A stretch of DNA of 63,960 bases, the filler included, from Psammoneis japonica (Eukaryota): the NCBI GenBank assembly GCA_008632985.1. It is 7 parts of 7 records of this genome, joined end to end, with 100 filler letters (N's around TTAATTAATTAA, not from the genome) between each part and the next. Parts side by side here need not be neighbours in the genome. Positions count along the whole stretch, not along the records: positions 1 to 22,640 come from QPGO01000015.1; 6 more parts are not named here. One strand, 5' to 3'. The notes under the pieces were generated by a model, which saw only the letters and a program-made list of their open reading frames with translations, ran no database searches and was not told the DNA's origin. The position numbers and the translations under genes are program-made. Shown here piece by piece: positions 1-58,060 of this stretch (position 1 is its first letter; the number at the start of each line of letters is the position of its first letter).

Positions 1-1533
1 CTACCCGGCACATGGGCTTTCAAACTCAAACGACTCCCGGATGGCACGCCCTTGAAGCACAAGGCACGACATTGCGTTCGCGGCGATTTGCAGAAACACG
101 GGATCGATTTTTTCGAGACCTGCGCGCCGGCAGTGCAATGGTCGTCCATGCGCCTTCTCCTCACCACGGCACTCAAGGAAGGTTGGACTGCGCGTCAAGT
201 GGACTACACTGCAGCCTTCTGCCAAGCTGACATCAAGGAGAAGGTCCACGTAGAGCCTCCAAAGGGTTTCCAACCAAAATCGGGCGCCGATCTGGCACCA
301 AAATTATTGAAAGGCCCACACGGCCTACGCCAGTCTCCCAAGTGCTTCTGTGAAAAGCTGAGGGACGGATTGCTCAAAAGAGGATGGATTCAATCCGCCA
401 TTGACCCTTGTCTTTATTTCAAAAAGGGCACGTCATGTGTGGTGCATGTTGACGATACCGTGTTCGCCGGCGCATCGGCCCAAGCCTTGGAAGCAGAGAT
501 TGCCAAGTTGGGCATTTCCAACGATGAGCAACGCCATGTCTTTGATCTACGTGATGAAGGCGAAGTCGGTAACTTTCTAGGCATCAAGATTCAAAAGCTC
601 GAAGACGGCCGATTCCTCCTGACCCAACCCGGCCTAATTGAGAAAGTTCTCCGCACCGCACAGATGACTGAGTGCAACGGCGCACCCACTCCTGCCTTGC
701 CTGCTCCTGCTGGCAGCGATGCCGACGGGCCACCGTTCGAAGAGCCTTATGACTGCCGTTCCGTGGTCGGCATGCTGATGTATCTAGCGTCCAACAGCCG
801 CCCGGACATTGCTTGCGCGACCCATCAAGTCGCGCGGTTCTCCTGCGCACCCAAGGCCTCCCACGCTGCGGCCATCAAGCGCATTCTTCGTTACCTGAAG
901 GATGCGGCCGATAAAGGACTTATCCTAACTCCAACCGCCGATCAACGACTCGACTGCCATGTTGATGCTGATTTCGCGGGACTCTTCAGTGTTGAAGATG
1001 GACAAGATCCCACGTCTGTTAAGTCACGTGCGGGACATGTCATTTGTCATGCTGGATGTCCGATTGTCTGGGTGTCCAAGTTGCAGACCCTCGTCGCACT
1101 CTCTGCCATGGAAGCCGAGTATGTCGCCCTCTCCCAAGCGATGCGTGATCTCATCCCCCTTCGCGAGATCGTGAAGGAAATCAACGCGCTCGTTTTCGGA
1201 CAGCCGGACAGACAGACCGACATTTCGACACATTCGAAGGCTTTCCGACACGCCAACGACGGAACTGAGGATTCTCCCATTGACTCTGCTAACCTCCCAG
1301 CATCCGTTGTGTACGAAGACAATGCTGCCTGCCTCCAATTCGCCCGTGTGCCAAAATTGTCCCCACGAACCAAGCACATCGGCATTCCCTGCCATTGGTT
1401 TCGTGCTAAAGTTGAGGCTTTGGAGATCAAAATTGAGCCTGTGAGCTCAGCTGCACAGCTTGCTGACCAGTTCACCAAAGGATTGACTGTTGATCTATTC
1501 CGTACTGGTCGCAAAGCCCTCATGGGCTGGTGA
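1..1533 (+). mobile_element. Ty1/copia retrotransposon pol, reverse transcriptase + RNase H (5'-truncated by window edge), carrying many TA->CA/TG missense changes
   Basis: Frame open from base 1 (LPGTWAFKLKRLPDG..KHKARHCVRGDLQ). Copia RT/RNase H motifs: GLRQSP, VHVDD (=YVDD), SRPDIA, DADFAG, LSAMEAEY, YEDN, PRTKHI, QLADQFTKGL. Confidence 0.95.
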
Positions 1534-1560
1534 CTGATAGTTCTCCTTCTCTTTTCGGTT

Positions 1561-1836
1561 GAGAGGGAGAGTCACGAGTCAACAACCGAGTCTGATTCAC
1601 GGATGACGCTCCCGGTCATGGATCTCTTCTTCCGGAAGAAATGTCCGTTGAGTCTTCTAGCGACAGTAATCGGAGTGACACACACGACCGTTAGGTCATA
1701 ATGTCATCTCCAATCCCTCGTGAGATCTTCTCACAATTCGTATCTTTAGCGTATCTTATTGTCCCAAACCTACTTCTTATCATCCTCTGTTGTATTGTAC
1801 AACCTCAAGAGAGTCCTGAACTCTCCATCCTACACA
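1561..1836 (+). repeat. Polypurine tract (gagagggagag, 1561-1571) followed by the probable 3' LTR; right end uncertain
   Basis: Purine run about 28 bp after the pol stop, at the expected PPT position. No second LTR is present in the window to fix the boundaries. Confidence 0.55.
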
Positions 1837-1858
1837 GTGTATTGTTGTATCCCAAGTA

Positions 1859-2157
1859 CGACCTCCTCTTTTGATATCACCGCTGTTCAACAAGAAGGTT
1901 GCTCTCCCCGACACCACTTGCGCTCTTAACAACAGATGCTAAGAGACTTATTTTTGGTAAGTCATATCCTTTATCGTGCGCTTTCCACGGGCTCAGGAAT
2001 CATCGGCACCAACCCATTTTTTCCTCTTCAGCTCCCATTGCGGCTCGACCCATCACACCCTACTCGAAGATGTGTATCTCAATTACCGTCAAAAGGAGCC
2101 CGTCACCACTGGCGCTTTTGATTGACCTCTCCTTCCTCTACCTGTTGCAGTGATGAC
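1859..2157 (+). repeat. Left arm of a ~300-bp inverted repeat (partner 4059-4360), containing an intron-like GTAAGT...CAG and ending at an ATG (2153)
   Basis: Direct alignment: cgacctcctcttttgat...ggagcccgtcaccactggcgc matches the reverse complement of 4103-4360, with weaker similarity continuing to the ATGs. Confidence 0.9.
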
Positions 2158-2429
2158 AGAAGAATCGCCCACGGCATCGTCTCCCAAAACGCAAGCGAGA
2201 TCCCCAGAGGAACCATTGCAAAGGTGTGCGGCTCCACCCTTGCATCTGCCGTGTGCCAGCAAAAGAAGGCCATGTTGTGGAAGTGGCAATGCAAGCAACA
2301 ACAACATGAGAGATGTGGTGTGTGGGCACCTTGTTGAGAACTCTTGTGTGCCACCGGGACCCACATGCAATTTTGAATACATTAGATTCAATTTTTGCGT
2401 CCGTTGTTGGCTATTTTGATGTTGCTTCA

Positions 2430-4063: not shown

Positions 4064-4360
4064 GGTCACTACAGCAGGTATAGCAAGCCCAGAACTGATA
4101 GAGGCGCCAGTGGTGACGGGCTCCTGTTGACGGTAATGGAGATACACGTCTTCGGGTAGGTTGGGATGGGTCGAGCCGTAATAAGAGCTGAAGAGAAAAA
4201 AATGGGTTAGTGCCGATACTTCCTGAGCCCGTGGAAAGCGCACGATAAAGGGTGTGACTTACCCGATAAAAATCTCTTAGTTTCTATTGTTAAGAGCGCA
4301 AGTGGTGTCGGCGAGAGCAAGCTTCTTGTTGAACAGTGGTAACATCAAAAGAGGATGTCG
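4059..4360 (-). repeat. Right arm of the inverted repeat; forms the 5' UTR and intron of the Exo1-like gene
   Basis: Reverse-complement match to 1859-2157. GTAAGT donor, CTAAC branch point and CAG acceptor lie on the minus strand. Confidence 0.9.
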
Positions 4361-7260: not shown

Positions 7261-7326
7261 CGTCGTGCTCCAGTTGGCAAAAAGTGACGGGATTTCTTCC
7301 AGATTGTGCGTGTTCGCGCTGATTCA

Positions 7327-7334
7327 TGACGTCA
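7327..7334. promoter_or_regulatory. TGACGTCA bZIP/aureochrome-type palindrome in the divergent clpR / sugar-transporter promoter (also at 15208 and 29938)
   Basis: Exact palindrome about 70 bp upstream of the clpR start. Function is inferred only. Confidence 0.3.
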
Positions 7335-9714: not shown

Positions 9715-9930
9715 GAGCATTGAAACTGGTTCGGAGACGAATTGACACGGAAGAGTTTGAGAAAGAGGGATACTACCGGTACGCGCATCTGTGTATTCTC
9801 TAGCATAGTATTTTCCTTGCCAGGTAATAATGTACTCGCTACCGTATCTATTGGTATCGATATCCAGAGCACGTAGTTTAGCATGGTCCACCGGTCCACC
9901 AGAAAGCGAACCGCGATGAAATCCTGGTTT

Positions 9931-32881: not shown

Positions 32882-35800
32882 CCTCCTCACTCTCTGTCTG
32901 TGACAAAGATGTCCTCGCTCATTCGTAGCTTTCTTGACGCGAGTTGAGGTTCGTTCGTGTGCATACAGTACGGTACGGCTGAGCATGGATCGGAAGTCGG
33001 AAAATCGAAAATCATTGCTGTCGCCCAACGCCCAACGCCTGACGCGCCCACGCAGTCTCCATCGTGAATCATCTAAAGTCTGGGAGGAACGTATAGTTGG
33101 ACAGACTGCCGATCGTCGTGGCGTGAAGAATTCTGTGTTCGCATCATCTTGAATCTTACGCGGTCACCAGCCAGACACACTCAAAAATCGTACGGTAAAG
33201 CTTCACACACACTAACACAAAGCCGGTGTTGGTGTCTGCCGCGCGCATTGCCACTCGCATCGTTGTTGTTGCTCTGCTGCTGTCGCCAACGTGCGATTCA
33301 AAATCGCATCAACACAAATGAACTGTGTCATCTGCAAACAGTGGCCATTGGTTTGGTGGGGGCTGTGTGGCAGTGTCAGCAGACAACAAGAGAAAGCGAC
33401 ACTCCTTGCTCACAGAATGACAGAATGAGTGGTGTGGCACCAGGCGGTGCTGACTGCTGTTGATGGCGTCACTGGAGGCATTGGTGACTGTGCATCACTT
33501 GGTCCAGCTGGTGGCTCATTGTCTAAAAGTCACTTGGAGTGTCAGTTGGAATTGCAGATGGAATGTTTTTTGAAGTCGCAGTTTCAGATGATGTCGTCGA
33601 AGCCTCGGATCACAGCCTCTTTGGGCTCTGTGACATCGATGGAGAATCAGATGATGGACTCGGTGCCACAGATGCCTTGTTGATGGTGTCAAGGATGGTG
33701 CACCACTTGGTGCTGTGCTTGGGGCCCTTGACAGACTTGGCGATGGTGCGCTGAAGGTTTCATGGAAGGCACGTCGCTCAGTTCAGTTGATTGGACTTGC
33801 GGCTCTTGCGCAAGTGCGAACATGCGTGAAGGCAGTGGTTGGCACTCACTCCTCTTTTGTGCACACTTTGTTGGGATGCAGAGTCAAGCACATGGCAGAA
33901 TGTGTGGTGTGCATCAACAATGGGATGCAGTGCATCAACAGCGACAATTTCAAGGCATTCGCAGAACTGAGGGGTGAAGGCACGACAATTTGATTTGTCA
34001 GGATTTTCTGCTGTAAGAGAAATGCGCAGCGCTGTGTGCCTCATTGCCAAAAATTGGCAATGTGATGGTGGTGAGTTGTTGCATTGATGGCGATGACAGC
34101 GACGTGTCCCAGCATCTTTTGTCATTGTGGACATTCAGTTCATTGAGTTGAAGAACGTGTGCAGTCATGAAAGTCCCCGTGAGCAACCTCCGTTCAAAAG
34201 CAAAATGCCACGCCAATGAGGAGCTCTGTTTTTTCATCATTGTTTGATGCACTTGATTGTTGAACGATTGTGAGTTTGTCTGGGGGACTTTCTTTGCACA
34301 CACATGTTCCCAACAGCGCAATTGATTGGTGTGTTAAGTGCCTGTTGTGAAGTCATCCTCTGTCAGCATCTGAAAATTGTCATCATCATTGTGGGCTTCA
34401 AATGGCAATTTTGTCATCCAAATCGCAATCAATTGCACAGCTGTCATCTGTCCAACATTGCACTTCTGTGCGCAACTTCTGCGCACACCTCAACAGCATG
34501 GAAAGCGCATTTTGGCTTCTTCTTGGGGCCTGTCACAGTTGGGTTGAGAAATGGCCTGGGGATTTTAGTCAATTGCATGCATGAATGCAATGAAACCAGT
34601 GATGGAAAAACCACTTTTACGATGATGATGACGATGACGACACCCAACATAAAAATGCCACGTTCAACCTCTCTTCTCACATTGCAACAAACAAACAGAC
34701 TAATGTGTGTGATCCCTTGCATGAATCGTGAGTCCACCTTTTTTGGCGGACATCTGACAGACCATCGTGACAGCGCTAACTGACTCTTCAGACCACAGAA
34801 GCCAAAAAGCACCAAAATCAACTGCAACAATGACGATGCCCTGGCTTGCACTGCTGACCTCACCATGTTGTTTTGTCGTGATTTGTGCACTGTCGAGGAA
34901 GTGTGTGAGTTCCTTGATGTCTCTGTGGTGGCCTCACATGTCATCGCGGAGCTGCTTGAGGGGGAAAGATGCTCCACCACCTCTGGATGTGACTGCCCTG
35001 CCATGTGCCGCAACAAGAGGACCTTGCTCCGGCCACTTTTTTGTTGCATGTCCACACTGCCACCAGCTCTTCCCTCAAGTTTCTGTCTCCCAACAGCAAG
35101 AATGACACAAGAATGACAGTGATGGCTGTTGCAAGCCATCCACATTTCAATCGCCCACGTCGATTCTCAAAAAGCATCCCAAAACATCCACACTGCCCGC
35201 TGCTGCTTCTGCAGCACAACTGCTTGTAGAATGCCCCATCGAAACAAAGGTTCCATCCAAGACTCTGGTCCAAGCATTGCATGAGGATGTTGTTCAAGGT
35301 GAGATGTTGACAATCACCAAAATCAACAGAATGGTTGGAACAGTGGTTTGTTGTTGTTGGTTCAAGTGTTGCTTCCCGCGGTGGCTCAATCTCATGCACA
35401 GGCACTCCAGCAGCTTCAGCCAAGCTGCAAGGGAATTCCACCAAAATGAAGGCAAAATGAATGCTGTTGAGGCATGTCAGATTGCCGCTTGTCAAGCCAT
35501 GGTGGCTGGCATTCATCAAGTGCAAGAGATGCGTGCCGAGCATGATGAGAGACCATCATGTTGAAAGAGCTTGAACAGCAGAAGCAATTGGAAAAACAAG
35601 AAACAGCCAAGCATTGCATGGAGACAAAAAGGAGAAACCAAAGCAACAGCATCCACTCAAAGCCAAGCAGCCACACATGAGCCAAACCGTGCCACCAAGC
35701 AGGAGGAATTGAATCTCATGGAGGAGGAACTGGTGGCATTGGAAAAGGAAGAACGTGTGGAAGGAGGAGCAGAAGCAATTGAAAGTGCACAAGCAACAAG

Positions 35801-38196
35801 GAGAGGAAGAAAGCAGAACAGCAAGTTGTGCATGAGACTGATGGCACTGCTGCTGCTGCCACTGAGGCACTGCTGCAACTTTTAGTCTCCCACATGCACA
35901 AGAATTGGAGAAGCCATTCAAAACATTGCCACCTCATTGGTTCACATTTGTCAAGCCATGGAATCCAAATCCAACCTGGCGCACGAGGCAGATGAGATTT
36001 GGAAGGAAATGCACAGGGGAGTTGCAAGCAAGACTTTCAATTCCGTGGATGTCATGATGCCAGTGATGCCAAGGGACTCCTTCAGGCATTGACTCTTGAC
36101 AGTGATGGCAACAATGACATGGAGTCATGGTGTGTTGGGGTGCCACAATCTGTGGCAGAGAGATTTGGAGATAACATGAAATGGGTGTGCATGACGTCAT
36201 TGATCAAAACAGAATTGTGCTTGAAATGCATTTCTCTTTTGTTGGTGCTCTGGCACAAAAGGACAACAATGAGCAAAGGAAGCAGTCGTGGCATGCCCCA
36301 GACATGATCTTCTTCCAAACCATCACAACATCCTGCTCAGCATTGTCACTTGGTCTTCAGAGTCAGGGCCTGGCAGCTGCAGTGTGTGACTGTCTTGAGC
36401 TGCTTGTGGCAGTGACTTTACAGCAGCAGCAGTGAGGTCCTAGAGAGCTGGCTCAACAAAAGTGGATGACGAAAGCAGATGTCAGAAGACACACTGCACA
36501 TGCTCACAGAACAGCTTGATCAGGGACCAATGAGCAACTGCCAATCAAAAACAAACTTGCTCAGCAGCAAACAACAGTGTTGAGAGCTTGAAGAAGCAGT
36601 GGAGAATGCTCCAGTTTGGGCGCTGCACCACCAAATGTTCTTTGAGAGACAGAACAAACCAGTGCATGTGCTCTGTGCATCCAGAAAAAAATGTTTCTTG
36701 CTGAGCAAATATGGGCAAGAAGACAAAGGCTGTCTCATGTGCCTCAGGCACATGACACCTCAACTGCTTTTGAACTTTGGTGTTGGTGCATGCGTTGGTT
36801 TCTTGCAGTCCACCCCATCCCTTGGTGGCAAGAATGAAACCATTTGACCCAACAGATGAGTTGGAATGGACACAAAAGCACACCCAACATTGGTGGAGGC
36901 AAAGGATGTGGATTGAACCAAGGGACAAATCAAGGACAAATCAAATTTAACATGAAGCCACATGCGCTCACCTTGCATGCAGACAATGCCGCCCTCATGT
37001 GGACACCAAGACTTGTTTGTGATTGGTGTGCATGCAGATTTCTTGATGGGCAAACTCATGCATTTGGTGACTTGAATGATGCCATCTGACACCAAGACAT
37101 TGCCACAATGAGTGGATTCAAAGCATGAGCATGTCTTGAAACTTGAAATGGCCATGGTGCCAGACCTTTTTGACTTGCTTGCAATGCCAACAGCACTGGA
37201 AATTTGTGTGTTCTTGCCTCTCCTTGCTCATGAAACCAGCCATCAGTGACAAAATCCACACCACTGTGCAAGGATGCAAATGTCAAGAAGAAACAACAGT
37301 GATGAAACAAGCTTGCAAGCCACATGCATCCTCAGAGCATGCTTTGACTGCCAACTCCACTTGACGCTGATTGCAGCATGGCACAGGACTTGCTTTAAGC
37401 CCATGGGAGGATCAGCACTTTTGGCACTGCACATGGTTGTTGTTGTCCTTGGATTGTGGTTGCTGTTTTGCCTTTGATGTCGGCACCTCCACATTGAAAC
37501 AGATGCAATGATCTCTTTTGGAACCTTGAAACACAGCACAGAGAATCTGGTGGTGTGCAGCTTCAAAGAAGGCCTGTCACATCAAACAAAACATGGTGTT
37601 TCCCAAAATTCAGATGACGACATGTCTTTGGCTCATTTGAGGGTAAAGGAACTGGCAGCAGAAGTCCATGGATTCCCATGGGGCCACTCAGAGAACATCA
37701 GCACTTCAGCGATCTCCCTGATGATGTGCAATGGAGTGTTGAAAATCCAGAAAAAAGTTAGCGCTGTTACAAACAGTGATTTTTGGCTGCATGCAGAGAC
37801 TTGCAATGGAGGTGGTCACATGCGTGCACATGTGACAGGAATCACTCGGGTCCTGAGAGTCATCACGCAGAAATTGTGCAGCAGTGGAGCACCAAAAATG
37901 GTCATTGTCAGTTTGTCCATCCATCCACACATGAACATCAACTTCTCAGGAAACAAATTGAAATGCCATCTGACCAACGACATTTTGATTCACAGGTGAA
38001 GGCCAGTGCCATTGATCAGATGGCATTCAAATTCAGTTCCCAAGAAGTTGTTAGCTCTGGTCACTCTCTCACCTCTCACATGACATTGTGTGTGCATTTC
38101 TGCACGATTTTGTGTTTTTCCCATGCAAAATGTCAATTGTGACTTGTGCAACATTTTTGAATGACTCCTGTTGGTGTGCAGAGCAATCAAGGTGGT

Positions 38197-38372
38197 CTTG
38201 CACAAGGCCATGGGTGGTCCTGTGGAGCAGTCAAGTTGGTCACGCGGAGGCCATGGGTGATGGCATGGAGTGATCAAGTTGGTTGCACAGAGCCATGGGT
38301 GGTCATGCGGCGCAATCAAAGGTGGTCGCACAGGAGGCCATGGGTGGTTGTGTGGAGCCATGGGTGGTCATG
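38197..38372. repeat. Degenerate ~40-bp tandem repeat (gccatgggtggtc..ggagcagtcaagttggtc), with a further copy at ~38800
   Basis: ccatgggtg recurs at ~38208, 38252, 38293, 38338, 38358 and 38803. Confidence 0.8.
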
Positions 38373-41189
38373 CTGAGCAATCAAGATGCGTTCTAGCCCT
38401 GTGGGTCTTTTTGTGACATTTGCCCTCAGAATTCTGCGTGCAAGCTCTGCGCAGTTTGCACTCTGGTGGTCAATGCACACGCATTTGTTGTTGACATCAA
38501 ATGAACGACCAAGTTTGTGGCACATGCACCCCTGTTCACACTCAAAGTTTTGGACAATCTGCCTGCCCTGTGCCATTCTTTAGATGTTTGAGAATGGCAC
38601 AGAAGAAAAAATGTCAAAAGTTGTTGAATGGATCATCTCCCAAAAATTGTGCCATCAAATGACACAAAATTTTGCCAAAATCACGTAGAAATGTGTGTGT
38701 GTGACACACAACGTAATTCAAAAAGCCATTGACATCACAGTTCAGCAGTGCAAGGTCCCACCTGAACCTGGAATGTGTCTCAAGGTGGTTGCTGTGTGGA
38801 GGCCATGGGTGGTTGCATGGAGCAGTCAAGTTGGTCAGGGGACCATCGTCTGCAGCATTCTTCATCTCTAATTTTCCTGCATGATTTCTGTGTGACAAAC
38901 AAAATTCTGCTCTGGCACAAAATGGCACATTTCACGTGCCAGTGATTGATTCTTTGTGGCTGCCCACTGCTTGCAACAAACTCATTTCTTGCTCCAAGCA
39001 GAGCAGNNNNNNNNNNNNNNNNNNAATTCTCCCTGCCATGATTTCTGTGTGACAAACAAAATTCTGCTCTGGCACAAAATGGCACATTTCACGTGCCAGT
39101 GATTGATTCTTTGTGGCTGCCCACTGCTTGCAACAAACTCATTTCTTGCTCCAAGCAGAGCAGAGCAAGCATTGACCCTTCAACCACCGGACTTGAGCAA
39201 ATCTCCAGGGGTGAACATTTGCTTGATTACGTCACAAATGCGTTGACAGCAATGTTTTCAGATGTGAGCAATGGACAATTTGCACGATTTTGTTTTGGAG
39301 TGTGCATTCTCCAAAAGCTCGGGGGGGGGGGGGGGGCATTCTTGCAATTTAGAAAGCAGGAGCTAAATCTCAACCTTTGACAATGACATTTGTGGTGAGT
39401 TGCCATCACAACAGAGCAGCAAATGCCGCACCCTTGGAGTGGAGATTTGCTTGTGACAAGCAAATGCACCTGTGGCGTGTTTCATGCAGATCACACATGA
39501 TGTGACATTTTGTGTTGTGTTCATTGCACCATCACATGAATGCATGACATGCCACAATTTGTCAAGTGGAGCAAATCTCCACCCATTGCAGCCAAGCCCC
39601 ACTTTCTCCCCTTTTGAATGACTTCTCAACCTCATTCTCTTCTACAAGCTCCCACTTTCAATCCAACCATGCCTTGCTGCCAACTGCTTTCTTGCCCTGC
39701 ACAAGACCCATCTGACCTCTCCATGCTGTGCCAGTTGGTGCTGGTGCCTTCCTCTGCCACATCTCAGGTGCTCTTGTTGCACACCTCTTGCAGCTGCTTT
39801 CACTGCTGGTCCACTTAGATCTGGCCATTTCAGCATTGGCATTCATTGCAGCTTGGACTTCCTCATCCATGCCATCCATTCCAAAACAGAGTGCTGTCTC
39901 TCCCCAGATGCACCCCCCACCCAAGCTGTGGTTCTTCTTGATCTTGTGAGCAAGCTCAGCAAAGAAGCCTCCCACAACATTTGCCACCATGTCCTCTCCT
40001 CCTCCCTTGACACTGCCCCTCATCTCCTTTTCAGCCTTGCATGTCAAGAGCCCAAAATGTCAGTTGGTGTCATGACCAGCACCAATGCCAGTGGCTCTTC
40101 TTCCTGCAACACAAAGGGTTTGTTCAAAGCTGCTCCCTTGCCCCCACTTTGCCAGCCTCATCCTGGCTTGTGCCCTCATCCCACTTGGCCAAGAACTGCA
40201 GCTCCACCCCCCTCCCCACTCTCAATCTGCTGCCTCCTCCTGCCTTGATGACATTTGCATTTTCCCCCCTCATTCCATCATCACTTGGCACTTCTCTGCG
40301 ATTGTCACCCAATGGCTCTTTCTCTTTCTCAATGGCTTGATTTGCTCTCTGTGTGATGCTGCCCTTGCCACCCCCACTCCCACCCTCTCTGACAATCTGC
40401 CCAACTTCCACACCTCCTCCTGCTGCTCTCACTCTTCCCAACAAGCTGCTGATGTTGATGACCTCAGCACCACACAGGCTTGTCTCACCTCCTCTCTTCC
40501 AGTTGCTTCCCTTGCTCCTGAGCACATCAAGAAACTGTGCCCTCCCCACAAACACCCTCCTCTGCTTCCCAGCACTCATGACACTGCCCCACTGCCCTCC
40601 ACCTCCTCCTTCTCCCATCCAATGCTTGGTCAAAGATCTTCAAAGGCCCTTTCAAAATGTTGCCCAGGCACTGCTGCTGCAACTTTGCCAGTTCTGCCAA
40701 ATCCCTCACGTCTTTTGCACTCCATTGATGCTCTGCACCCATCCCTGCAGCCAGGCCCCAATGTTGGAGCATCCAGCATGAGCAGAAAACAACACAAGAA
40801 ACCCAGAGACAGATCTGTTTCCTGATGTGGTGGATCAGATGACACTTTGAAAGTGAGTGTGCATTTGTGGCCCATCTTGCCAATCTCATTTTGTCTTGCT
40901 CTTTGGGGAAGTGAATCATTTGGTTTCCACAAATTGCATTGTGGTGCAACCAGGCACCCTTTGTGCCATGAGATCAAAGTTGTTGAGAGCTTCCAGGCAA
41001 CAACCGCAGCTGCCATGGCAACCAGAACAAGTGCAACAAGCAAACCTCAGAGGATTCCCTTTTGGCAACATTGTTTTGACAGCATTCAGTCCAAAGAGTC
41101 AACAGCACCACATTCAGTGCATGTGGTGCCAACCTCCATTGCATCATCCAAATTGGGAAACCTGCATCATGAGTTGCAGAGGAGGAGAG

Positions 41190-44100
41190 AAAATGAGTGC
41201 TAAAGGCTGAGGACATGACCAAGGCAGGGGTGGCAGAGGCCAGAAGTCTTGCCATGACAAGAACAAGAAGACTGACCCCAAGAAGAGCTTCAAGCTGGAA
41301 ATGAAGTTTTGTTGGTGATTGATGAACAGCAACTCGTGCAATTTGATGTTGAAGAAATCAAGGAAAAGATCAACTGCACGCAGAAGGAATGTGATCAAGG
41401 TGTGCATCTGGCAGGTCCCTGGAAGACATGGCAAGCATGATGTTCACTGGTGAGAGTCCAACTCTCTGGCCTGGTGATGGCAATGACAGCAGTGTCAGCA
41501 GAGAGTCAGGTGAAGATTGCCAGATTGAGACAAGCAAAAGGGCCAGACAAGAAAGGCAACTGGAATGTGAGCACAAGATCCAGTTGCAAGACTGTGGCAA
41601 GAAAGTGAAAAGCTCAAAGAAAACAAGAGTGCCGCTGCATTTGTGGTGATCCCAGATGGTGACTGTTCCAAGTTGATGAAGCAGAGAGTGCAACCTGACC
41701 CCAGTCATCAGAGGATCAGAGATGACCCAATCAAGCTGGTCAAGCTGATCCAGTCACTTGTGTTCAACTCCACAAGAGGTTGAGTCCCATTTCACACACT
41801 TGCCAATTGCCAACAAGTCCATGATGCCACACTGGAAGTCAAACAGCTGGAGGACAAGTCACTGAATGACTGCCTGTCAAGATTAAAAATCAACAAGATG
41901 CCAAAAGCAATGGTCTTGGCAGCAAGATGTTGGGTGGATTTGTCAAGAATGCCAAGGAGTGCAAGGAAGGACTGCACTGCAACAGCAAATGAGAAAGCAT
42001 TGGACTTCACCTTGCAAGTCATGATGCAGAAACATGCATTGTGCCTCATTTCCATGCATTGGTGCTGTTTTTCTTGCACAAGTGCAGTGTGAGATTTTGA
42101 GTTGAATGCAGTTTGGGATCTCACAACTTTGGCTCATGGGTGTGCATGGGGCATGCCAAGTGTGCTGTCATCACTGTTGCCACAATTCTGCCTGGGTTTC
42201 TCTGCCACACCTTTTGCATGTTTTTCTGTGCAAGCTCTGGTGGCACAGATGTCACCCTTCTCTGACAATGTGACAATGAGTGGGTGCCACAGATTTGTGA
42301 TGTTAATCTTGGCCAGCTGCCACGCATCCCTGCCACATTGTGTTGGTGTGCTGCGGGTGTGGGTTGGGTTGTTGCCAGAGTTGCAGGGTGGAAACACAGC
42401 AGCATTGTGCAAAAGCATGTGGCTTTGGTGCTGAGTTCAATTTTTGCACCATGTGAAAACTGAACTTCACAACACACACCTTTGCCCAATGAGAACAAGA
42501 AGACTGGCCCCAAGAAAAGCTTCAAACTGGAAATGAAGTTTTGCCCATCATTGATGTGACATTTGAAGATGTCAAGGAAAAGAACAACCATGCACAGAAG
42601 GAGTGTGATCAAGGCATGCATCTGAAAAGGTCTCTAGAAGACATGGCATGTGTGACCTTTTTTGGTAAAAAGCCTGCACTGGCAATGACAATGACAGCAG
42701 CATGCCAAAGGATGATGACAAAGATTGCCAGAAGACAGTGAACAAGAGAGCTCAAGAGGAGACACAGCTCAAATGTGAGGCAACATCAAGTTGCGTGACT
42801 GCAATGAGAAAGTCAAGAAGCTCAAAGAAAACAAGAGCACAAAATTTGCAGCAATCCTGGATGGTTGCTGTTCCAAGCCAATGAAGCAAAGAGTGCGAGC
42901 TGATCCCTCACATGTGAAGATCAGAGATGACCCAATCAAGCTGCTGAAGCTAATCCAGTCCCCCTCATGCTCAACTCCATGGAAGTCAACTGCCTTTCCA
43001 CACTTGCCAAGTCACTGAAGCACATGCTGGAAGTGATGCAATTGGAGGATGAGTCACTGAACAACTGCCTGTCAAGATTTGAGAATCAAAGAGAGGCTGC
43101 AAGCAAAAGTCTTGGCAGTGAGATGCCAGATGTGTTTGTCAAGAACACCAAGCATTGCAAGGACTGCACTGGCACAGTGGATGAGAATGCATTGAAGGAC
43201 ACTGCATTTGAGACATGGACCACATGCCTGTTCTTGGAGAACAGTGATGACTGCTGCCACAAGAGCATCAAGAAGAGCCTTGTGAGAGACTGCAGCCTGG
43301 GAAGGGATTTGCACCCAAAGACCCCAGGGAAGGCAATGGATGTGCCACTGAACCATCCAAAAGACAATGATCTGCACACAAGGGACAGGAGCAAGAAGAA
43401 CAATGAACACCCAAATGACAAATTAGAGGACACGGGCAATGACAAGACCAAGAACCTGCAAGACAAGAATCATGCACAGAGTGACAAAGTGACATGAGGA
43501 TGAGATCCTGGCAGAAGGACTTGCGCAACAAGCCCAGCAGGAAACCAGATGCTGGAGGACTGAGTCATGCACAGAGAAACAAAACAATTGGTCAACAAGC
43601 AGCAACAATGCCAGCATTGATGCCTGCAGGTCAAGCCCATCTGCAAGCTCCAGCAGGAGAGACATTGCATGGCATGGGATCCAGTTAGATGAACAGGCCA
43701 AAGAAGGGCCAGAAACAAGTTTGAACCAAGAAGCTGATGTTGGCATCAAGTCAGATCAGATCATTCTCAATCTGCCCTTGACATGGCAGCAAGCCAGAAA
43801 CTGGTGCACAATGTGCAACCGGCAAGGATCAAGATTGATCTTTCCACTGACACCAAGACTGCACCATGCCAGGATGGGGTGACATGAAGCTTGGGCCACA
43901 GAATGCAGCAGTCAACATCCTCAGTCTCAAGGATGTGAAGAGCAAGCACTGCATGGTGCATGACAACCGAGTGGTGTGCATGAGTTCCATGTCACTGTGT
44001 TCAAAGTCAATGATTGGGCTGCATGCCTCAACACCAAGTCAGCAATTCTTTGACCATGCAGAAGATGCATCTCCAAGAAGATGAGTTGCATGTGAGCATG

Positions 44101-46190
44101 TTGTCAAAGGACAAGAAGGCTGCAAAGAAGATCAGCACAAAGCACAGGAGTGCATTGGGAACTGTTGTTCCAACTGTAAAACAGAGTGTGAATGGCTGCA
44201 CCAAACAAGAGGTGGCAAACACCAAGGAACATTGAAACTCTGATGCAAGGCTGGAACACCCCACAAAGGCAATTTCAAGCCTTTCATGCCATCCCATCAG
44301 GTGAAAACCCATCCATTCTGCCTGAGGATGTGGGTAGAATGGCGGCCATGTGGGGTCCACCAACAGATGCACTCAAAGGCAAGACCAAGCTTGCACACCA
44401 TTTTCACGAGAGAAATGACATCATTGTCACACCACCTGAGATTGCAAGAGGCAGAGAGATGGGTGAACCTCTGCATTGATGTCATGAAGTGTGTGGTGTG
44501 TCGACACTGTGTGCAGTTGACAAGATGATGAAGTGCCAATCAAGTGAGTGAAGTCCAAAAAGCATGATCACATTTACAAAGCCTTGGATGTGATTCTCGG
44601 ACAGCACAACATGGCCCCATTCAAGACAGATTTTGTCAAGTGTGATCCTGAGCTCAAAGACATGCTAGGGAAGTTGCAGATGGTGTGAATCTAGAGCTTG
44701 TCTCTGGCACCAATGCCAAGGACCACATTCCTGAAGTTGAGCAAAGCACTCTGATCATCGGGGAGCAAATCCAAGCCATCATGCATCACCACCACACAAG
44801 TTGATGTGCAAGCAAGCCATGATCAAGAACACTGTCATGTCAAATGTGTGCATGCAAAAGGAAGGGATTTCTGACACTTGCAGTCCTCTCACTGCTGTGC
44901 AATGAAGAAACCCTTGACTTGTGCAACAAACACTTTCAGCTCAGATTTGGGGAACTTGTTGTTTCCAACATCAAGAATGACAAGATGATCACTGTGGAAG
45001 CACATGGTGTTGACAGTGTCTGCCTGCAATCACATTTTGATTTGCCCAAGGGCGTCACCATGCTGTGAACCTGCACAGGATGGGCAAGTCATTGAATTCC
45101 CACAAGTGCACCTCTGTTCCCTTGGCCAACATGCACATTGCAGCTGTCAAGGAGATGGCCATGGGACAAGGCATCAAGGAATTCAAGTTCACAGGGGAAA
45201 TGCAAAGACAATCCACGTGATGTTGATTGGACTGCAGGATGAGTGGACAACTGAAAACAAAAGCAACAGCAATGATGAAAGTGACAATGAAACAAAATCC
45301 CAGAAAGAGAAAACATGCAAACTGCATGACTGAGTCAGAAGCTAAAGATTGCAAAGCTAAGATGACCTGACTCAGATGATTAATGCAAAGAAGCAAATGA
45401 GACATTGGCCAATGAAAGGTCCAGTCCCAGCCAACAGCACAAAGCTCATGAGGAGCAAGAAGTTGAAGCAAGCAAAAACTGCAACAATGAAAGTCCAAAG
45501 AGGTGATGATTCTCTGGATGATGACAGATGGGAAGGACAATGATTGGAGGAAAAAGCAAGAACCACGCCTGGTCAAACCCTGAGAAGCAGTGCAAGCTTG
45601 AGTGCAGCCATCATTTGCATGCCAACATGAGTCCTGATTCAAAGGACAACATCAAATGTGCAAAGCAGAGATGGCAATTGCACTTGCACACTTCATGTGT
45701 GAGGTCGATGACCAACTCTGAAGTGGAGAGGGTGCATGCTCAGCCAGCAACATTTGCTCCATGAAGGCCTCAAAGCATTGGCCTTTGCCCAGAAGAGGCA
45801 TGATGCCTCAGAGAAAGAGACAACCAAGTGTGCTTTGGTGACTCCAACTTCCAACTGAAAGGACCAGCCAAGGCCATGCCAGCCTTGATGTTCCTCGCCA
45901 AGAAACGAGATGGTTGCATGAAAGGACAAATTGTCTGCAATGGCAAACCAACCCAAGAGTGGCCAGATGAAGATGAGTCAGCCAGCCCCACTGCATCCCT
46001 TGAGGGGAGGACATTGATGATGGAATCATTGATGCCCATGAAGGACATGATGAAATGAGTGCTGCATTCCAAATGCATTTGCGCACAGATTGTGATGGTG
46101 CCGGAGCCTGGAGAAGGTGAGGACCACATCAGAGGCTGCAACACAGTGGTGTTTACTTCCTTTTGTCTGATTTGTGACAATTGATGCAAT
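41190..46190 (+). mobile_element. Degenerate diatom-type copia element: two gag copies (~41190-42000 and ~42490-43500), then protease/integrase/RT remnants, truncated in RT
   Basis: NILSLKDVK, EDV..MWGP..ALKGKT, LCIDVM, LMFLAKKRDGCMKGQIVCNGKPTQEW..SASPTASLE (cf. ..KRDG.IKGR.VYNGKPTREW..SPT). Confidence 0.8.
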
Positions 46191-48625
46191 GCAAGTTTCT
46201 CTTTCCTTTTTTTTTACTCTTGCATGCAAGTGTGTTCATGCAGTGTTCAATTCACACATTTTGCATGGATCTTTTTGCTTTTTTTTTGGCTTAATTTTGT
46301 CAATTGATCCAAATGCATCTAGTTTTTGATTTCAGTGCATCACATTTTGACAGCATTGTTGCACTTGTTTTGATGCATTGTCTTTGACAGTGGTTTTCAA
46401 TGGCTCCTCCCCACACATGCACCACCACAGTGGCTGGCATCCCCTCTGCACCCAAGTCACCCCCCTGCGCACTTGCCTCATTGTTTGATCCAGCACTTTC
46501 CAGAATTTCAGTGCATGGCTCTCTACCTTGTTTTTAGTGCATGTTCTACATGCACAATGTTCTGCCTGTTTCATGACAGTCCATGTCCTTTCCCCAAAAT
46601 GCATTCGACCAGAGCATGTGCTGTCATGATTCACGCACTTTCTACATGAATCAACAACTGACTTTTGGCTGTGGTGGTCAACGACTTTACCCCGTCCCAC
46701 GATGAGGTCACCCACCCTTCCTTCCAATTTCCTGATGAGTGTGATTTTGATGAAATGGAACATTTTGCCAATGGTTTTGGAATGGAGTTGTTTGGACCCA
46801 AGCTCAAAAGCATGATTTCAACGCTTGCATCCAAAAACCAGTTTTTGGAGACAACAAATTGGTCCCCCTCTCCAGAGTTCCTCACTCTTCCCTTCCCTTT
46901 GTCACAAGCTAAAGTTGTGTCACATTCCACATGTCGCAGAAGTTGTCCGCACCAACAGTGTTGTCAGGAAAACTCTTGGATGCCCTGACATTTGGTCCCA
47001 CATCATGACCATGGTTGGTCCATGAAGAAATCCAGCACACTGAAAGGTGAGTGTGTTTTTCAATGTCAAAATTTGGAGGAAGCTCTCTCCATTTCTCTAA
47101 AATGCCCGGAGAGACAGAACAAGAAGAGGAGCACCTTGTTTTGCTTTGCCGCAACATCAAGGCAATGGCAGAATTTGTGCACATGGTCGATGGGGACAAC
47201 CCAATGATCCTGTCTCTGGTGAGCCTTGTTTCCATTTTTCATGGTCAAAAATCTCCAAGCATTGATCAACAACCAAGCCCACAACCTTCACGGTGCATGC
47301 TTTGTCACTGACATCATTGTGCACTGCATCCAGTGCAAACCCAAGGACATGGGCTGTTGGTTCATGCAGATTTTTCACCATGTCAACACCCAAAAGGAAT
47401 GGCTCATGTTTGTCAATGGCTTTCTGGTCATGTGCAATTCCAACGATCCAGGTTCCCAGGAGGATGAGATCAAGGGGTTCCTGGAGACAAAATCAGTGAC
47501 ATTGAGAACTCTGTGATGACAGCCAGTGATTCCCTTGCAAGTTGGGAGGCATGCAAAGAAAAAATCAATTCCATGTTGAATCATGAATTTGGGAAGCACT
47601 GTCCTGAGGAGCAACCTGGCACATGACCTGGGTGCAGCAAGCAGCAAAATGCTTTGTTGCAGAATGTGTGATCAGAGGGCTGACTGCCCAGAAGATGACA
47701 ACAAATGAGAGTGCAAATCCCAAATTCAAAATGAGGAGGATCCGCAAAGATGGCACCTGTTTGAATGATGGCAAGCACCCCCCTCCCCCCCCTTTGCCTT
47801 CATTGCCTGCCTGCATCTGTTGTCTCATGGATCCTTTCCCCCCTGATTGTACATGCCCCACCAGAGCCTTCCTTGACCATCCCCAACAAGAAGGCCAAGA
47901 CTGCCATCACACTCAAACCAAGTCCCTCCTTTGTCGTCCAGTGATGTGCCATTGTCCAGGGAGGTGCACCGCACTCTCACAACGGACCTTCTGACATTGT
48001 CAGAAATCATGGATCCAGGAAAACCTTCTTCCCCCCCCAATGTCCTCCCTCCAAATGGCATTTTTCTTGGTTGGGTGTTTCTGCAAATCACTTGGTTGTT
48101 TTGTCTCCTCCCCCTGACACCAGGACATGTTGTGGCTGGACAAGTCTGCCATTTGCCAGCACTTTGACCTGTCCAAGTGTTGATCTGTTGCCTCAGGGGA
48201 AGTTGTCACCCATCTGTCATGCCTGCACATCATCGACAAGGCCACCAACACTGAGTGTGTGCTGCATCATTCCACCACTGACTTTCACCCAGCAGACAAT
48301 TTGCAAGAAAACTGGCACATGTTCTCCAACAAAACTCCCTTGAGCAATCCCACCACCACCTCTTCAATTCTGGAGATGCTGCACAACTAGAGCCAGTCAA
48401 CCTGGAAGAACAGCTGCTCATGCACCAATGGATGTCATCAGAGACCAGGACCAAAGAGCATGGTTGGAATGGAATGGAGCACAAACTGTGTGAGAATGCT
48501 GAGACAATTGCTGCACCCACACATTCGACCATGCATTCCGTGGTCCCTGTTCTGGACAAAACCTGTTCACCTTCTCTCCCTCTGGTCAGCATCTGTGCAA
48601 GGGATGTGGATTCACAGAGCATCAA

Positions 48626-49866
48626 ATGGTGGAGTGCATTGACACCAACCCAAACATGTGCAAGGAATGCACCAGCCAAGTTGCCATGTCAGACATGTCT
48701 GACTTGGTTCCCAGTGGACTTGTTGCTGACAATGAATCTCACTTGTTGGAGAAATCCCACAGTGACAATGACATTGGCAAATCATTGGTTCCCAATGGAC
48801 TTGTTGCTGACAATAATTCAAACTCATTGTCTGGGGAATCTGACAACAATGATGACAGTGATGAATCCTTGGTGAATGATGGGCTTGTGGCAGACAATGA
48901 ACTAAACTCATTGTTGGAGGAATCCTCCATCAACAAATCTGCCATTGACAAAGTTGTTGATGGGTTCAAAGAATCTGAGTGCTGCCTGCCCATTGTTGCA
49001 GGTGAATCAGCAGTCATCCCATCACTGGAACAAAATTTGGATGATGAGGAAATGTGCAATGATCCCATGGACAATCAAGCAAAACCACCAGACCTTTCAA
49101 AAGTGCAAAATTTGGATGTGGAGGCATGCGTGGACACAACCATGTTGCAAGTCTCACATTCGCGCATTGACTCATTCCATTTTCTGATTGTGTCATTTGA
49201 CTCATGTCATGATTCTGGAACCATCTAATGCAAAACTTTTGTGTCACTTTTTTCATCCTCACAAGCAATGATGGAGGTGCAAAAATCCTGTGGCTGTGCA
49301 CGACAAGGCCTGTCAATGCGGGAGAGCTGTCCTTGGATGAGCTTTGTTCAGACTGTGGTTTGAAGGCTGTGCAAGTTGTGAAGGACCTTTGCACCAACGC
49401 CTCTGTTGAGGCATGCATCCTCTCTCTGCAGGACAGAAGTGCCACACACCACCCAAATTGCAACATTCATGCCAAGGATTTTGTTGATCATGTGAAGTTG
49501 CAATTTGGTGGTGAGATTGATTTTAAGAAGAGTGGATTTGTTCAAATTTGCATGGACTGCTGCTGGATGCAATGAGGGGAGTGGCAGCAAATGTCATTTG
49601 GAGAATGCTTTTTCCACAAAAACCTCAAAGAGATGATGAAATCTTTGTTGCATCCAAAGCTTGAAAGGTGCCACATCACAGTCCCATGCAACCTGTGGTC
49701 CCTTGCCCAAGCTGTGCGCAGCTGGAGCACACAGAAGAATGTGTGCTGGTGCTTGGTGTGACCGAGGAGATGGCATGTAACAAAGTGACAATTTACCAGG
49801 CATCCCTTGAAATGGAGAGCAGGACAGGGGTGATTGGCTTGGAAAACCATCCAATCAGGAAGCCCT
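48626..49866 (+). pseudogene. Degenerate ORF with three ~82-bp GLVADNE repeats, followed by a possibly Mutator-like transposase remnant
   Basis: Repeats at ~48706, 48787 and 48871. HAKDFVDHVKLQFGGEIDFKK loosely resembles the MuDR pre-catalytic region. Confidence 0.3.
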
Positions 49867-55319: not shown

Positions 55320-58060
55320 AAGTCTCTTTGTTGTGTTGTCTGGACAAGCAGTCAGACCAGGGACGCGGTTGTTGCTCAACAAATGACATGCCACAAACTC
55401 TGGGTTTGTCCAGCATTTAGTGCAATGAGGGCAATGCGCGAACATGCCGTTTTTTGATTTCTGACCGTGCTTGTGCCTTGGGCATCGAAGCTGCTGATTG
55501 CTGACCATTTTAGGCACAGCACGACAGGCAAGATTAACAGTGCAATCATGATCAAAAGTCTCTATGATGGACAGTCGAGTGCAATCCTCGCTGCACATCA
55601 ACCCAGTTGTGCAGATCCGACTGGTCAGTTTGGATGGTGTTCTTTTACCATCACGCCTAAAATCTCCATTGTCAGAATGCAGATTGTCTCTTGCTGTGTT
55701 TGTGTCTTCAAACCATGCCTGAATGTGACCGTGCACCGAGAGTCTGCCTTGTTCTTCCATTGCAGCTATGAAAGCGGAGGGTCTCCCTGTGTAGAATTCA
55801 AAATCTTCTCTGGGTGAATTCCTTTTTAAGTCCCATCCTGTCACTTCTTCCATGACGATTTCCAACAACATTTCGAATGCAAAAGCCATGACACCCGGGT
55901 GCTCCACACGAAGCTCGTTTCTTGCCTTGGCCTTTTCGGTCAATTCTTCATCCGACATTTCTGTCACATCTCTGCCTTCGTCGATGAGCATGTCCGCATA
56001 AATTTGAACTAAAAAGGAGCTAGCATCATCGGGGCTTGTCGTTAAAAATGCTCCAGGTTGTCCAAAGTGGTGTTGGCAGGTTTCAGCATTTCTTCTCATT
56101 TTTTTTGCTGCTTCATTTGCATGTGGAATAGATGCCGACACCACATCCACTGCACTTAAGAAACGATGTCCCAATGCGCAATTCCTGCATTCACCGGTCT
56201 GTCTGTCACATGTGGCACGGTCGACATCGTCTTGTGTCAGTTCATTTGAGAATTGTCTGGCTTGATTTTTGTCTCTTACTTTCCATCCAGCACTGTGCAC
56301 CATTCGTTGCTTCACAGTCAGATTGCACAGGGTCAGAACAAAGAGTTGCTTGTGGAAATGGGGCTGAGAAATGCGGGCCAAGTGATCTGCGCAATGTGCT
56401 AGATTTGTGCAGTCGCGAGACTCCCGTCTTCTTTCATTCTTGTTTCATTAACACCGCCACGCCCACAAGGAAATTGCAGCAAGCAAGCATTTGCCAGGTT
56501 GTCATCCTTAAAGTCACTGACTGATTCTTTCAAAAGGTCAGCTTTGAATTCAATGTCAAAACCGCTTGCAGCTGCATCGTGCACCAAGTCTTTGAAGCTG
56601 TCTAAATTGCGTTGTCCACCAGTTGTTGAAGAAACGGTGCCATCGGGGAAACAAACACTGCAGGACTCCGTGGTTTCAATGTTTGCATTTTCGCTTTCGT
56701 CTGAACTGCTGTTGTCCACTAAAACTGGATTCTGCAAATTACTTCGCACTTCCTCTAGATCGATGTCTTGATTCATCCAATTCTTGTGGTGATGGACAAG
56801 CCATTCTAGTGCTCTCATCACATGGTGAGTCCTGATTTTGTTCTTTTGTCTGGCCATTCGCCTTTGCTCTGGTGTCATTTTGCCGGATGCCAACACAACC
56901 ACATTTTGATGAAGGTTCAACACGTCAAAGTGCATGATGGTGCGGGCGATGCTCTTTGTGTTTATCTTGCAATGGGAAAGACTGCCTTGCAGTTTCTTCT
57001 GTTTGCCGCCGACAAAACTGAAGCAGCAGCCACATGTTTTCACAGGTGTCAACAAAGCCAGTTCTGCTTCGGCAAGACACGATAATTCAGGTGGTGGTGT
57101 TCCAAAACAGCAATTGTTTGCTGTTGCGCATGGAGGCATAGAAGCAGTGCAGAGACTTCTTTTACAAGGCCTGCAACAAGTGAATCCTTCAGACCTTCTG
57201 TTGTCGTTCGGAACAATGCATCGAGCTCTTGGCGAAAGTGACAGGTCGGAAATCCATCAGCAATCCCGTGGAACATGGTCGTCATCGATGCGATGACAAT
57301 CGTGCAGGTCTTCCGACACTTGGTTCCATTCAGATGGAGTTAACAGGTGTCTGGCTTCATTCAATCTGTTGACAGAAAGTCGAGCAGTCTGAGACGGTTT
57401 TAACAATCTGTCACACACCAAACAAACCCAAGGGACGCACTCGTTTCCATTCCTGCAACAAAGCTTCTCAAAACGTCTGTTCACATTGTCTCGGTGCCTG
57501 GTGTTGCTGTCATCCACAAGACAGCTTGTAACGGCAGGCTCACACTGCGCAAAGATGAGTTGAACCAACAACGCAGCAACAGGTGCACACCAGATAACAC
57601 GACGACCCATGAGACTTGCAATGAGAATGATCTGAGTAAAGTCAATATGATCAATAGATGGCAGATGATCCCACCTGCAACTGGTGTTCCCAGTCACTGC
57701 AGGGTCCACTTCCAGTGTTTTCTGGACTCAGCAGACGAGTGTGTGTAACAAATCTTCAGTGTGTCAAGAGTGCAATGAACAAAAATGAATGTGAAATGAC
57801 AAATCTGCAACCGGTGTTTCCCGGTCTCTGCAGACTCTGCGACCAGTGTGTTCTGGTCCCCGCAGATGTTGTCTCAGCTGCAACTGGTGATGCTTTGTGT
57901 CGAGATGGCTGGAGAGTCTTCCTTTGTAAAAGTTCAGATCTCATGAAAAATGAGGGTTGAAGCAAACTTCCGTGCATGATTGACGGACCCGACACGTTGT
58001 AGATCGTTCGTCTCGATTTGCTTGACACGTCATCGTTCGCTCGTGCGTTCTGCATTGGGA
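55320..58060 (-). mobile_element. Helitron-like Rep-helicase gene, N-terminal part, frameshifted and TA-depleted
   Basis: VCLVCD, PPPELSCL.EAE, VMRALEWL, LQFPCGRGG (=FPYG), FGQPGAFLTTSPDD and EEQGRLSVHGHIQAW (HUH motif). Confidence 0.85.

Follow-up and report, generated by a model that had tools for sequence, protein, structure and literature searches.

How can the reverse transcriptase (RT) of a retrotransposon lose the tyrosine of its active site while the frame around it stays open? The question is raised by the first 1,533 bases of a 63,960-nucleotide stretch of DNA from Psammoneis japonica, a probable diatom (GenBank assembly GCA_008632985.1). This stretch, hereafter the window, begins inside the RT of a Ty1/copia element, and the pol open reading frame (ORF) of that element reads HVDD at a motif expected to be YVDD. 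We conclude that this copy has very probably been partly rewritten by a DNA-level, strand-symmetric hypermutation that is specific to TpA dinucleotides, changes A:T to G:C and is aimed at mobile DNA. The features on which the argument depends are as follows.

1..1533, plus strand: Ty1/copia pol ORF, 3' part (RT and RNase H region), 510 codons
4..699, plus strand: RVT_2 reverse-transcriptase domain, aa 2–233, corresponding to profile positions 17–243/244
445..456, plus strand: RT motif C, HVDD for YVDD (CAT for TAT), both Asp codons kept

The copia frame runs in from the 5' edge of the window and ends with the TGA at 1531–1533. Its RT domain matched Pfam RVT_2 (PF07727) over aa 2–233 with an E value of 5e-34 (118 bits against a cut-off of 31.6). 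The copia family was represented by an alignment (A1) of 69 relatives covering ~100% of the query, out of 120 listed matches. A profile search of the copia ORF gave no separate Pfam match for the RNase H region. Because the relatives align across all 510 residues, the sequence after the RT domain can be assigned to the RNase H region of their shared polyprotein, and residues 300–510 align over their full length with all 69 of them. The query keeps D322, D324, E371, E373, D440, N441, H459 and D489, all at invariant or at least 90% conserved columns and presumably catalytic in RNase H. Indeed, every invariant column of the alignment is retained, the Asp pair of motif C included. The canonical Y-x-D-D is absent from motif C, and the RT of this HVDD-bearing copy is probably inactive to judge from its sequence; the element belongs to Ty1/copia by descent.

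A search of 5.8 billion proteins returned environmental sequences as the nearest proteins, with 48–63% identity and all 510 residues aligned. No close sister protein was found in this collection, the best identity being 62% for near-length matches and 64% in a shorter-length search, and a search of representative proteins likewise found none. A second copia copy was not detected in the window, as 80 relatives of more than 1000 aa, used as tblastn queries, matched nothing outside 1–1533.

The loss of Tyr from this ORF is far beyond chance. Twelve columns of the alignment are Tyr in at least 70% of the relatives, and at eight of them the window copy has His (aa 83, 107, 149, 320 and 346) or Cys (aa 41, 252 and 464); at its Tyr codons, the change is some two thirds complete. 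The window's residue occurs in 0 of 68–69 relatives at six of the eight sites and is shared by four relatives at aa 320 and by eight at aa 346. The first position of motif C is Tyr in 96% of the relatives and His in 0 of 69. Of the 217 fetched proteins that align over this segment, 207 have Tyr there, three have His and one has Cys. In a leave-one-out analysis, the relatives had at most two Tyr-to-His/Cys replacements at conserved Tyr columns, and 57 of the 69 had none, against eight in the window copy. Consistently, Tyr makes up 1.37% of the window copia and 2.42–5.27% of its relatives. Further Tyr codons were probably lost at mixed Tyr/Phe columns, as indicated by column counts.

58..1050, plus strand: span of four further probable lost Tyr codons
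58, plus strand: aa 20, CAC
70, plus strand: aa 24, CAC
814, plus strand: aa 272, TGC
1048, plus strand: aa 350, CAT

What kind of base change produced these replacements? For each departure from the consensus at 280 conserved columns, we asked whether a codon for the consensus residue could have become the observed one by changing a single base, and scored the dinucleotide context of that change. As a control, the same procedure was applied to the DNA of 22 relatives, picked from 80 metagenome loci for full-length matches. The window copia has 41 departures, of which 16 (39%) are single transitions at TpA; the other 25 comprise 10 transversions, 12 multi-step changes, two other transitions and one CpG transition. 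Sixteen of the 19 single-transition replacements therefore fall at TpA, nine of them TA>CA and seven TA>TG, so that the two products have nearly equal shares on the sense strand. The 22 relatives carry 0–3 replacements of this type each. Changes that create TpA (CA>TA or TG>TA) number zero in the window copia. The 16 TpA-type replacements are distributed as follows, positions being codon starts and each change a single TpA transition.

121..1392, plus strand: span of the 16 TpA-type replacements
121, 754 and 1390, plus strand: Tyr to Cys
247, 319, 445, 958 and 1036, plus strand: Tyr to His
190, 904, 1030 and 1105, plus strand: Thr to Ala
130 and 295, plus strand: Val to Ala (both GCA)
298 and 316, plus strand: Leu to Pro (both CCA)

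The Thr-to-Ala changes depend on the last base of the codon before them, which is T in all four cases; codons ending in T make up 24% of the frame. The 25 departures that are not of TpA type lie within the range of total departures (12–33) in the nine closest relatives with DNA. TpA hits aside, the copy therefore looks as intact as a normal element, and its excess of departures over the relatives is entirely of TpA type.

These results largely bear out a sequence-only reading of this locus, which had described an open, CpG-rich copia frame caught in the course of TA-to-CA/TG rewriting. The ORF is open over its 510 codons, with a CpG observed/expected ratio (o/e) of 0.97, and the nine supposedly altered Tyr codons read as that reading had them (58 CAC, 121 TGC, 247 CAC, 319 CAC, 445 CAT, 754 TGC, 958 CAT, 1036 CAT and 1390 TGC). 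Its cross-codon sites are also present (cgt-gcg at 1030, tct-gcc at 1105, CCA at 316 and GCA at 130), and its count of seven surviving Tyr is exact. Tyr is indeed the majority residue (78–100%) at eight of the nine sites; the ninth, aa 20 in the sequence KHK, is ambiguous from the relatives, whose column is mixed (F31/H18/Y15). The rewriting itself is supported by the comparison of 16 of 19 single transitions with the 0–3 TpA-type changes per relative; the substitutions are not spread evenly over contexts, nor do the relatives share His at the YVDD position. The claim that nearly every departure from consensus is a TA transition was overstated, since it applies to the excess and not to all 41 departures.

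A dead copy undergoing ordinary neutral decay, chiefly through CpG deamination driven by methylation, would also yield transitions, which do dominate among copies of this family (196 of 263 differing places), and the old tracts elsewhere in the window are depleted of CpG. Such depletion is confined to those older tracts and absent from the ORF, where only one of the 19 single-transition replacements is of CpG type. The 510 codons also contain no frameshift or stop. We regard this explanation as highly improbable.

A per-copy process with two products makes a further prediction, namely that one ancestral TA will have become CA in some copies and TG in others. The stretch is present in the runs of one sample, and sister copies were defined as contigs of public run X1 (Logan) that match window positions 1–2400 with at least 80% likeness. 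There are 581 such contigs, 147 of them at 99% or more, and the copia family is therefore highly repeated. Among the listed rows of differences between copies, 38 of 40 were classified, representing 33 events; the other two were supported by run X2 only, and 226 further rows exist. Five of the 33 events are CA in the window and TG in other copies at the same site. Ten more are single TA<->TG/CA differences, at which the window keeps TA in eight cases and has lost it in two, so TpA is involved in 15 of the 33. The remaining events are seven of CpG type, five other transitions and six transversions.

At two of the probable lost Tyr codons, aa 20 (rows 58–59) and aa 350 (rows 1048–1049), the sister copies read TGC and TGT, respectively, and the window reads CAC and CAT. 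The sisters' TGC indicates that the ancestral codon at aa 20 was TAC, the site at which the relatives alone were ambiguous. At aa 350 the relatives have Phe or Tyr. Similarly, aa 491–492 read TTC-ACC in the window and TTT-GCC in other copies, and aa 492 is Thr in 69 of 69 relatives. The relatives' residues at aa 350 and aa 492 thus indicate that the ancestor had TA, not CG, and that it was resolved oppositely among copies.

The copy comparison bears on two alternatives. One is a sequencing or assembly artefact, for instance a modified base that is consistently misread in repeats carrying many modifications; the window is a draft of joined contigs, and the platform of the runs is not on record. 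This is barely credible, as the host genes that share these contigs are normal, the 147 contigs at 99% or more reproduce the stretch, and CA and TG are both seen at the same sites. Miscalls would not yield clean either/or products, nor would they give coherent results in two unrelated transposon proteins, the second of which is described below. The other alternative holds that the His, Cys, Ala and Pro residues are lineage features of a functional HVDD copia family, fixed by drift or selection. That the frame is open over 510 codons, that the family is abundant and that three of the 217 fetched proteins have HVDD would suit it. We nevertheless consider it very unlikely: His149 occurs in none of the 69 close relatives, the window's residues are absent from all of them at most sites, and sister copies have Cys at places where the window has His. 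All 16 changes, moreover, require one dinucleotide context, which in the four Thr-to-Ala changes includes the third base of the preceding codon. Other proteins that have lost 8 of the 12 Tyr are themselves nearly Tyr-free (0.0–0.8%), so they look mutated too.

TpA-specific hypermutation also explains how the frame has stayed open. In the mechanism that we propose, the host would direct change at TpA in mobile or foreign DNA as a defence, similar in logic to the repeat-induced point mutation (RIP) of fungi. An A following T would be converted from A:T to G:C on either strand to leave TpG or CpA, and a site once hit would no longer be a target. Since TpA is its own reverse complement, both products arise from one type of event. 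Under the genetic code, Tyr codons (TAY) become Cys (TGY) or His (CAY), xTA codons become xCA (Val to Ala, Leu to Pro), and the codon pair NNT-ANN becomes NNT-GNN (Thr to Ala). A TpA-to-CpA/TpG change cannot turn a sense codon into TAA, TAG or TGA; the sole change involving a stop is TAA to TGA. The frame therefore stays open despite the loss of the RT active-site Tyr, and for the same reason an open copia frame is weak evidence for activity or youth.

The most economical chemistry would be adenine deamination, leaving hypoxanthine in the DNA, a route that has been proposed for the matching signature in the chlorarachniophyte Bigelowiella natans. The same targeting and signature could also come from chemistry on thymine, in which the T of TpA is oxidized (TET/JBP-type) to 5-hydroxymethyl- or 5-formyl-uracil and mispairing or error-prone repair then gives T>C on either strand. 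From sequence, an A>G change cannot be told from T>C on the opposite strand, and 5-formyluracil mispairs with G. We saw no evidence of such a base in this organism. The sole experimental study favours adenine deamination, by a candidate-gene argument only, and the available text of that preprint puts forward an ADAT2-like deaminase as an untested proposal for B. natans (Mettrop et al. 2026, bioRxiv 10.64898/2026.01.13.699255). Thymine chemistry is accordingly a minor possibility, though one with some weight.

Is the process tied to reverse transcription? A second, unrelated mobile element in the window bears on this question.

55320..57493, minus strand: Helitron protein remnant, N-terminal 740 residues (DUF6570; 11 relatives, tblastn)

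The Helitron remnant is ended by a contig join at 55320 and has a frame change near 56400. All 11 relatives have Helitron_like_N and DUF6570 domains, and five of them, of ~1900 residues, also have PIF1 helicase domains (Pfam entries among the relatives: PF14214, PF05970 and PF20209). Tyr conserved in at least 80% of the 11 relatives is changed at six of six positions in the remnant. Ten of its 19 single transitions are of TpA type (six TA>CA and four TA>TG) and two are of CpG type; CpG o/e is still 0.6–0.7 despite the complete loss of conserved Tyr. Helitrons have no RNA intermediate. The scars on this element therefore argue for a process that acts on DNA and does not arise from reverse transcription, and the near-equal strand shares in the copia ORF likewise point to the DNA level.

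These observations bear directly on editing before integration, in which an RNA editor (ADAR/ADAT-like) or a cDNA adenine deaminase makes changes that reverse transcription then fixes, much as APOBEC3 acts on C in retroviral cDNA, so that copies would arrive already mutated. The element replicates via RNA, its family is strongly multi-copy, and many contigs share common alternative letters. In addition, known adenosine deaminases favour a 5' U/T, the preference of ADAR for 5' U being noted in the Discussion of the B. natans preprint (bioRxiv 10.64898/2026.01.13.699255). Editing of genomic RNA, however, gives A>G only on the sense strand, and the sense strand here has nine T>C and seven A>G changes. 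Common alternative letters among copies are expected anyway, because each TpA has just two possible products. Given that the Helitron and sharp-edged anonymous tracts bear the same scars, we judge pre-integration editing to be quite unlikely.

The tracts in question lie farther along the window.

13357–14598, 33214–49866 and 51303–53183: near TpA-free tracts, between or beside host genes
33214..49866: saturated tract, 16.6 kb, on the same contig as normal host genes
55320–63960: less completely TpA-depleted tract

Host genes at 3–33 kb encode XPG-like, ClpP, sugar transporter, AAA ATPase, HlyIII and ankyrin proteins, as well as RNase PH, a papain-type peptidase and a pseudouridine synthase. 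Ten host ORFs have TpA o/e of 0.36–0.68, CpG o/e of 0.78–1.17 and 1.6–6.2% Tyr. In two language-model look-ups of host proteins, Bacillariophyta was the most frequent taxon among the nearest clusters, a lead that makes a diatom host probable. The tract edges are sharp to tens of bases, the last dense TpA being at 13356, 33213 and 51302. At 33213 the TpA edge adjoins the 5' end of the normal pseudouridine-synthase gene on the same contig; unlike this sharp edge, CpG falls gradually across 33.2–36 kb. Within the saturated tract (34–50 kb), TpA o/e is 0.02–0.08, CpG 0.05–0.39, CpA 1.54–1.95 and TpG 1.78–2.15. Its sequence is complex and does not consist of simple repeats. ORFs of at least 120 aa in 33214–49866 gave no Pfam match, and the saturated-tract ORFs contain 0% Tyr and 4–7% Cys. 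Because no stops are created, long spurious ORFs abound on either strand of the saturated tracts. The tract at 13357–14598, a 1.2-kb insert between host genes, has two TpA and a CpG o/e of ~0.2; it contains an open frame of 336 codons with 0% Tyr, 7.1% Cys and no family match. Together, these data show that the process is restricted to mobile or anonymous inserted DNA, runs to saturation and spares adjacent host genes. The description of the copia copy as caught mid-mutation also holds when its 8 of 12 lost Tyr are set beside the six of six in the Helitron and the Tyr-free ORFs of the saturated tract.

The order of events can be read from CpG. In 55.4–64 kb, CpG o/e is 0.4–1.0 while TpA is already at 0–0.3; CpG approaches 0 in the saturated tract alone. 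Since TpA is low and CpG largely kept both there and in the copia ORF, loss of TpA comes first and is independent of CpG loss. The saturated tract also records both products. Two direct repeats in it (41260–42002 and 42492–43194, 71% identity) differ by 19 CA<->TG pairs, accounting for 38 of 148 mismatched columns; such differences are what a single ancestral TA or CG would leave behind if each repeat had resolved it differently.

Several smaller observations concern the sites and strands affected. Among 65 surviving TpA in 33400–49800, 49 are in NTAA/TTAN contexts, compared with 420 of 1144 in host DNA, and four are in ATAN/NTAT, compared with 526 of 1144. This bias could mean that the process prefers certain flanking bases or that some TpA arose afterwards. 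The copia ORF was likewise inspected for a wider target motif, and there 24 surviving TpA and the 16 inferred sites showed no clear difference by eye. TpG exceeds CpA in 40001–46000 (o/e 1.99–2.15 versus 1.54–1.80), and the opposite asymmetry is seen in 62001–63960 (CpA 1.94 versus TpG 1.37); a preferred strand might account for these local asymmetries.

Downstream of the copia ORF, the window contains one probable long terminal repeat (LTR).

1534..1857, plus strand: probable 3' LTR, start approximate, end from contig loose ends at 1857/1859

Summed contig depth in run X1 rises from ~550–870 (bins 1201 to 1520) to 6000–10000 across 1521–1840. A 295-base inverted repeat (1859–2153 and 4066–4360, 85% identity) flanks the XPG-like gene region. 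Its left arm begins exactly at the end of the copia LTR and is multi-copy in run X1, and TA<->TG/CA changes account for 10 of the 44 differences between the arms.

The gaps in the window each consist of 44 N, TTAATTAATTAA and 44 N (22641–22740, 49867–49966, 53184–53283, 55220–55319, 61186–61285 and 62529–62628). We take the insert TTAATTAATTAA to be a six-frame stop linker used in joining contigs. These linker gaps mark the window as a chain of contigs, and adjacency across the joins is therefore uncertain.

Several points weigh against the interpretation of hypermutation. Base composition of the copia ORF is unconvincing when taken alone, because its TpA o/e of 0.32 (CpA 1.15, TpG 1.35) lies within the range of the coding regions of 29 relatives (TpA 0.18–0.85, mean 0.60; CpA 1.00–1.43; TpG 1.02–1.80). 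One relative, L001, has 4.2% Tyr at a TpA o/e of 0.39, and among host genes ClpP stands at 0.36. We therefore rejected TpA o/e as a test of hypermutation in the ORF; the evidence is the pattern of replacements, not the ratio. Two of the seven remaining Tyr, at aa 139 and aa 250, sit at Phe/Trp columns, and these new Tyr (F139Y and W250Y relative to the consensus) cannot be made by the TpA process. The probable 3' LTR, with 16 TpA and an o/e of 0.68, appears less hit than the ORF. Sister copies were readable only in part, and the 16 replacement sites are absent from the 40 listed rows of copy differences; these sites may be shared with other copies, and a source copy that was itself mutated may have passed some of the changes on. 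The assembly may have been made from the sample behind run X1, so the run is not independent proof of the sequence. Finally, no deaminase, base modification or de novo event was observed here.

One related locus deserves separate mention. The metagenome contig L026:1-1776 is the only one of 80 related loci with a TpA o/e below 0.3 (0.18), with CpG at 0.10, TpG at 1.79, 1.9% Tyr and two stops within the matching region. This locus could be some other organism's mutated copy; with just three TpA-type changes at conserved columns, it is not convincing.

How does the signature relate to known systems? To our knowledge, textbooks describe targeted hypermutation of selfish DNA only in fungi, as RIP, and in animals, where deaminases act on retroviral cDNA or RNA, and we know of no RIP-like process in diatoms. 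In its arrangement of RVT_2, RNase H region and probable LTR, the element resembles diatom Ty1/copia retrotransposons (Pseudoviridae), whose lineages we take to be those named 'CoDi'; it differs from them by HVDD for YVDD and 15 further TpA-type replacements in the window copy. Like RIP in ascomycetes, the process would cripple repeats and mobile DNA by burst-like, context-specific transitions, spare neighbouring genes and leave a dinucleotide signature legible across copies of one family. RIP creates TpA, raises A+T and makes stop codons. The direction here is opposite, in that TpA is destroyed, G+C rises and no stop is possible. Fungal RIP consists of C>T changes, mainly at CpA (PMC2621366, available text), and the gain of TpA that these would bring is not seen here. 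Diatoms do carry RID-related DNMT4 enzymes, described in the available text of one study as being of unknown function (Hoguin et al. 2023, PMC9998398; context only). With APOBEC3 (G>A) and ADAR (A>G), the process shares a deaminase-type defence against retroelements, clustered transitions and a neighbour-base preference. Unlike these enzymes, whose substrates are single-stranded cDNA or RNA and whose traces are strand-asymmetric, it affects the strands about equally and has also hit a DNA transposon.

The closest match is B. natans. A literature search for a TpA-specific or RIP-like process in diatoms or elsewhere found only the preprint on this species, whose available text supplies the comparisons that follow (Mettrop et al. 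2026, bioRxiv 10.64898/2026.01.13.699255). In mutation-accumulation lines, two integrated viral regions mutate ~1000-fold faster than the rest of the genome, and of the 231 mutations recorded there, 230 were A>G or T>C, all at TpA. TpA-depleted coding sequences of B. natans are enriched in reverse transcriptase and DDE endonuclease domains. Both systems show near-exclusive A>G/T>C change at TpA, giving TpG or CpA by strand, and a long-term loss of TpA with gain of CpA and TpG, a composition clearly present in our tracts at 33.2–50 kb. The host differs, being a probable diatom (stramenopile) here and a rhizarian chlorarachniophyte there, as does host TpA frequency (~4.2%, 1144 in ~27.4 kb, versus 6.0%). 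In the present case an LTR retrotransposon, a Helitron and unannotated tracts are hit, compared with giant-virus and virophage insertions in B. natans. Depletion runs deeper here, with TpA o/e of 0.02–0.08 in the tracts against a Rho of 0.45 in the nucleocytoplasmic large DNA virus region of B. natans. The old tracts here are also CpG-depleted; the words 'CpG', 'diatom' and 'Tyr' do not occur in the available preprint text. The B. natans process was measured in real time, whereas ours is inferred from sequence alone. The window thus indicates the B. natans signature in a probable diatom, and the process has one published precedent.

A broader reading is that TpA hypermutation is a conserved genome defence of algae of the stramenopile–alveolate–rhizarian (SAR) lineage, diatoms included, which acts on any mobile DNA, runs to saturation and is separate from cytosine methylation. 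We offer this tentatively, as an idea somewhat more likely to be wrong than right. We examined 364 fetched copia proteins with at least six of the 12 Tyr columns covered; 360 had 0–2 Tyr-to-His/Cys replacements, one had four and three had eight. The last three (P0183, P0257 and P0259) contain 0.8%, 0.0% and 0.3% Tyr overall, respectively, P0257 being Tyr-free over 2061 residues. They are 34–46% identical to one another and come from three separate source collections. This suggests that the same process operates in other sequenced organisms and that its products have been called as proteins.

Diatoms are a group of large ecological weight, and the partly mutated copia copy provides a clean codon-level read-out of the process in a probable member, being intact apart from TpA hits, affected on both strands and untouched at CpG. 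Open frames in such genomes are no evidence of active elements, and transposon ages estimated from divergence will be wrong unless the TpA process is taken into account. Database 'proteins' that lack Tyr may be the ghosts of mutated transposons. If a SAR-wide defence of this kind exists, gene callers would be reporting long open 'ghost' frames as proteins, and Tyr-free, His/Cys-rich frames would serve as a searchable marker of it across eukaryote genomes and metagenomes.

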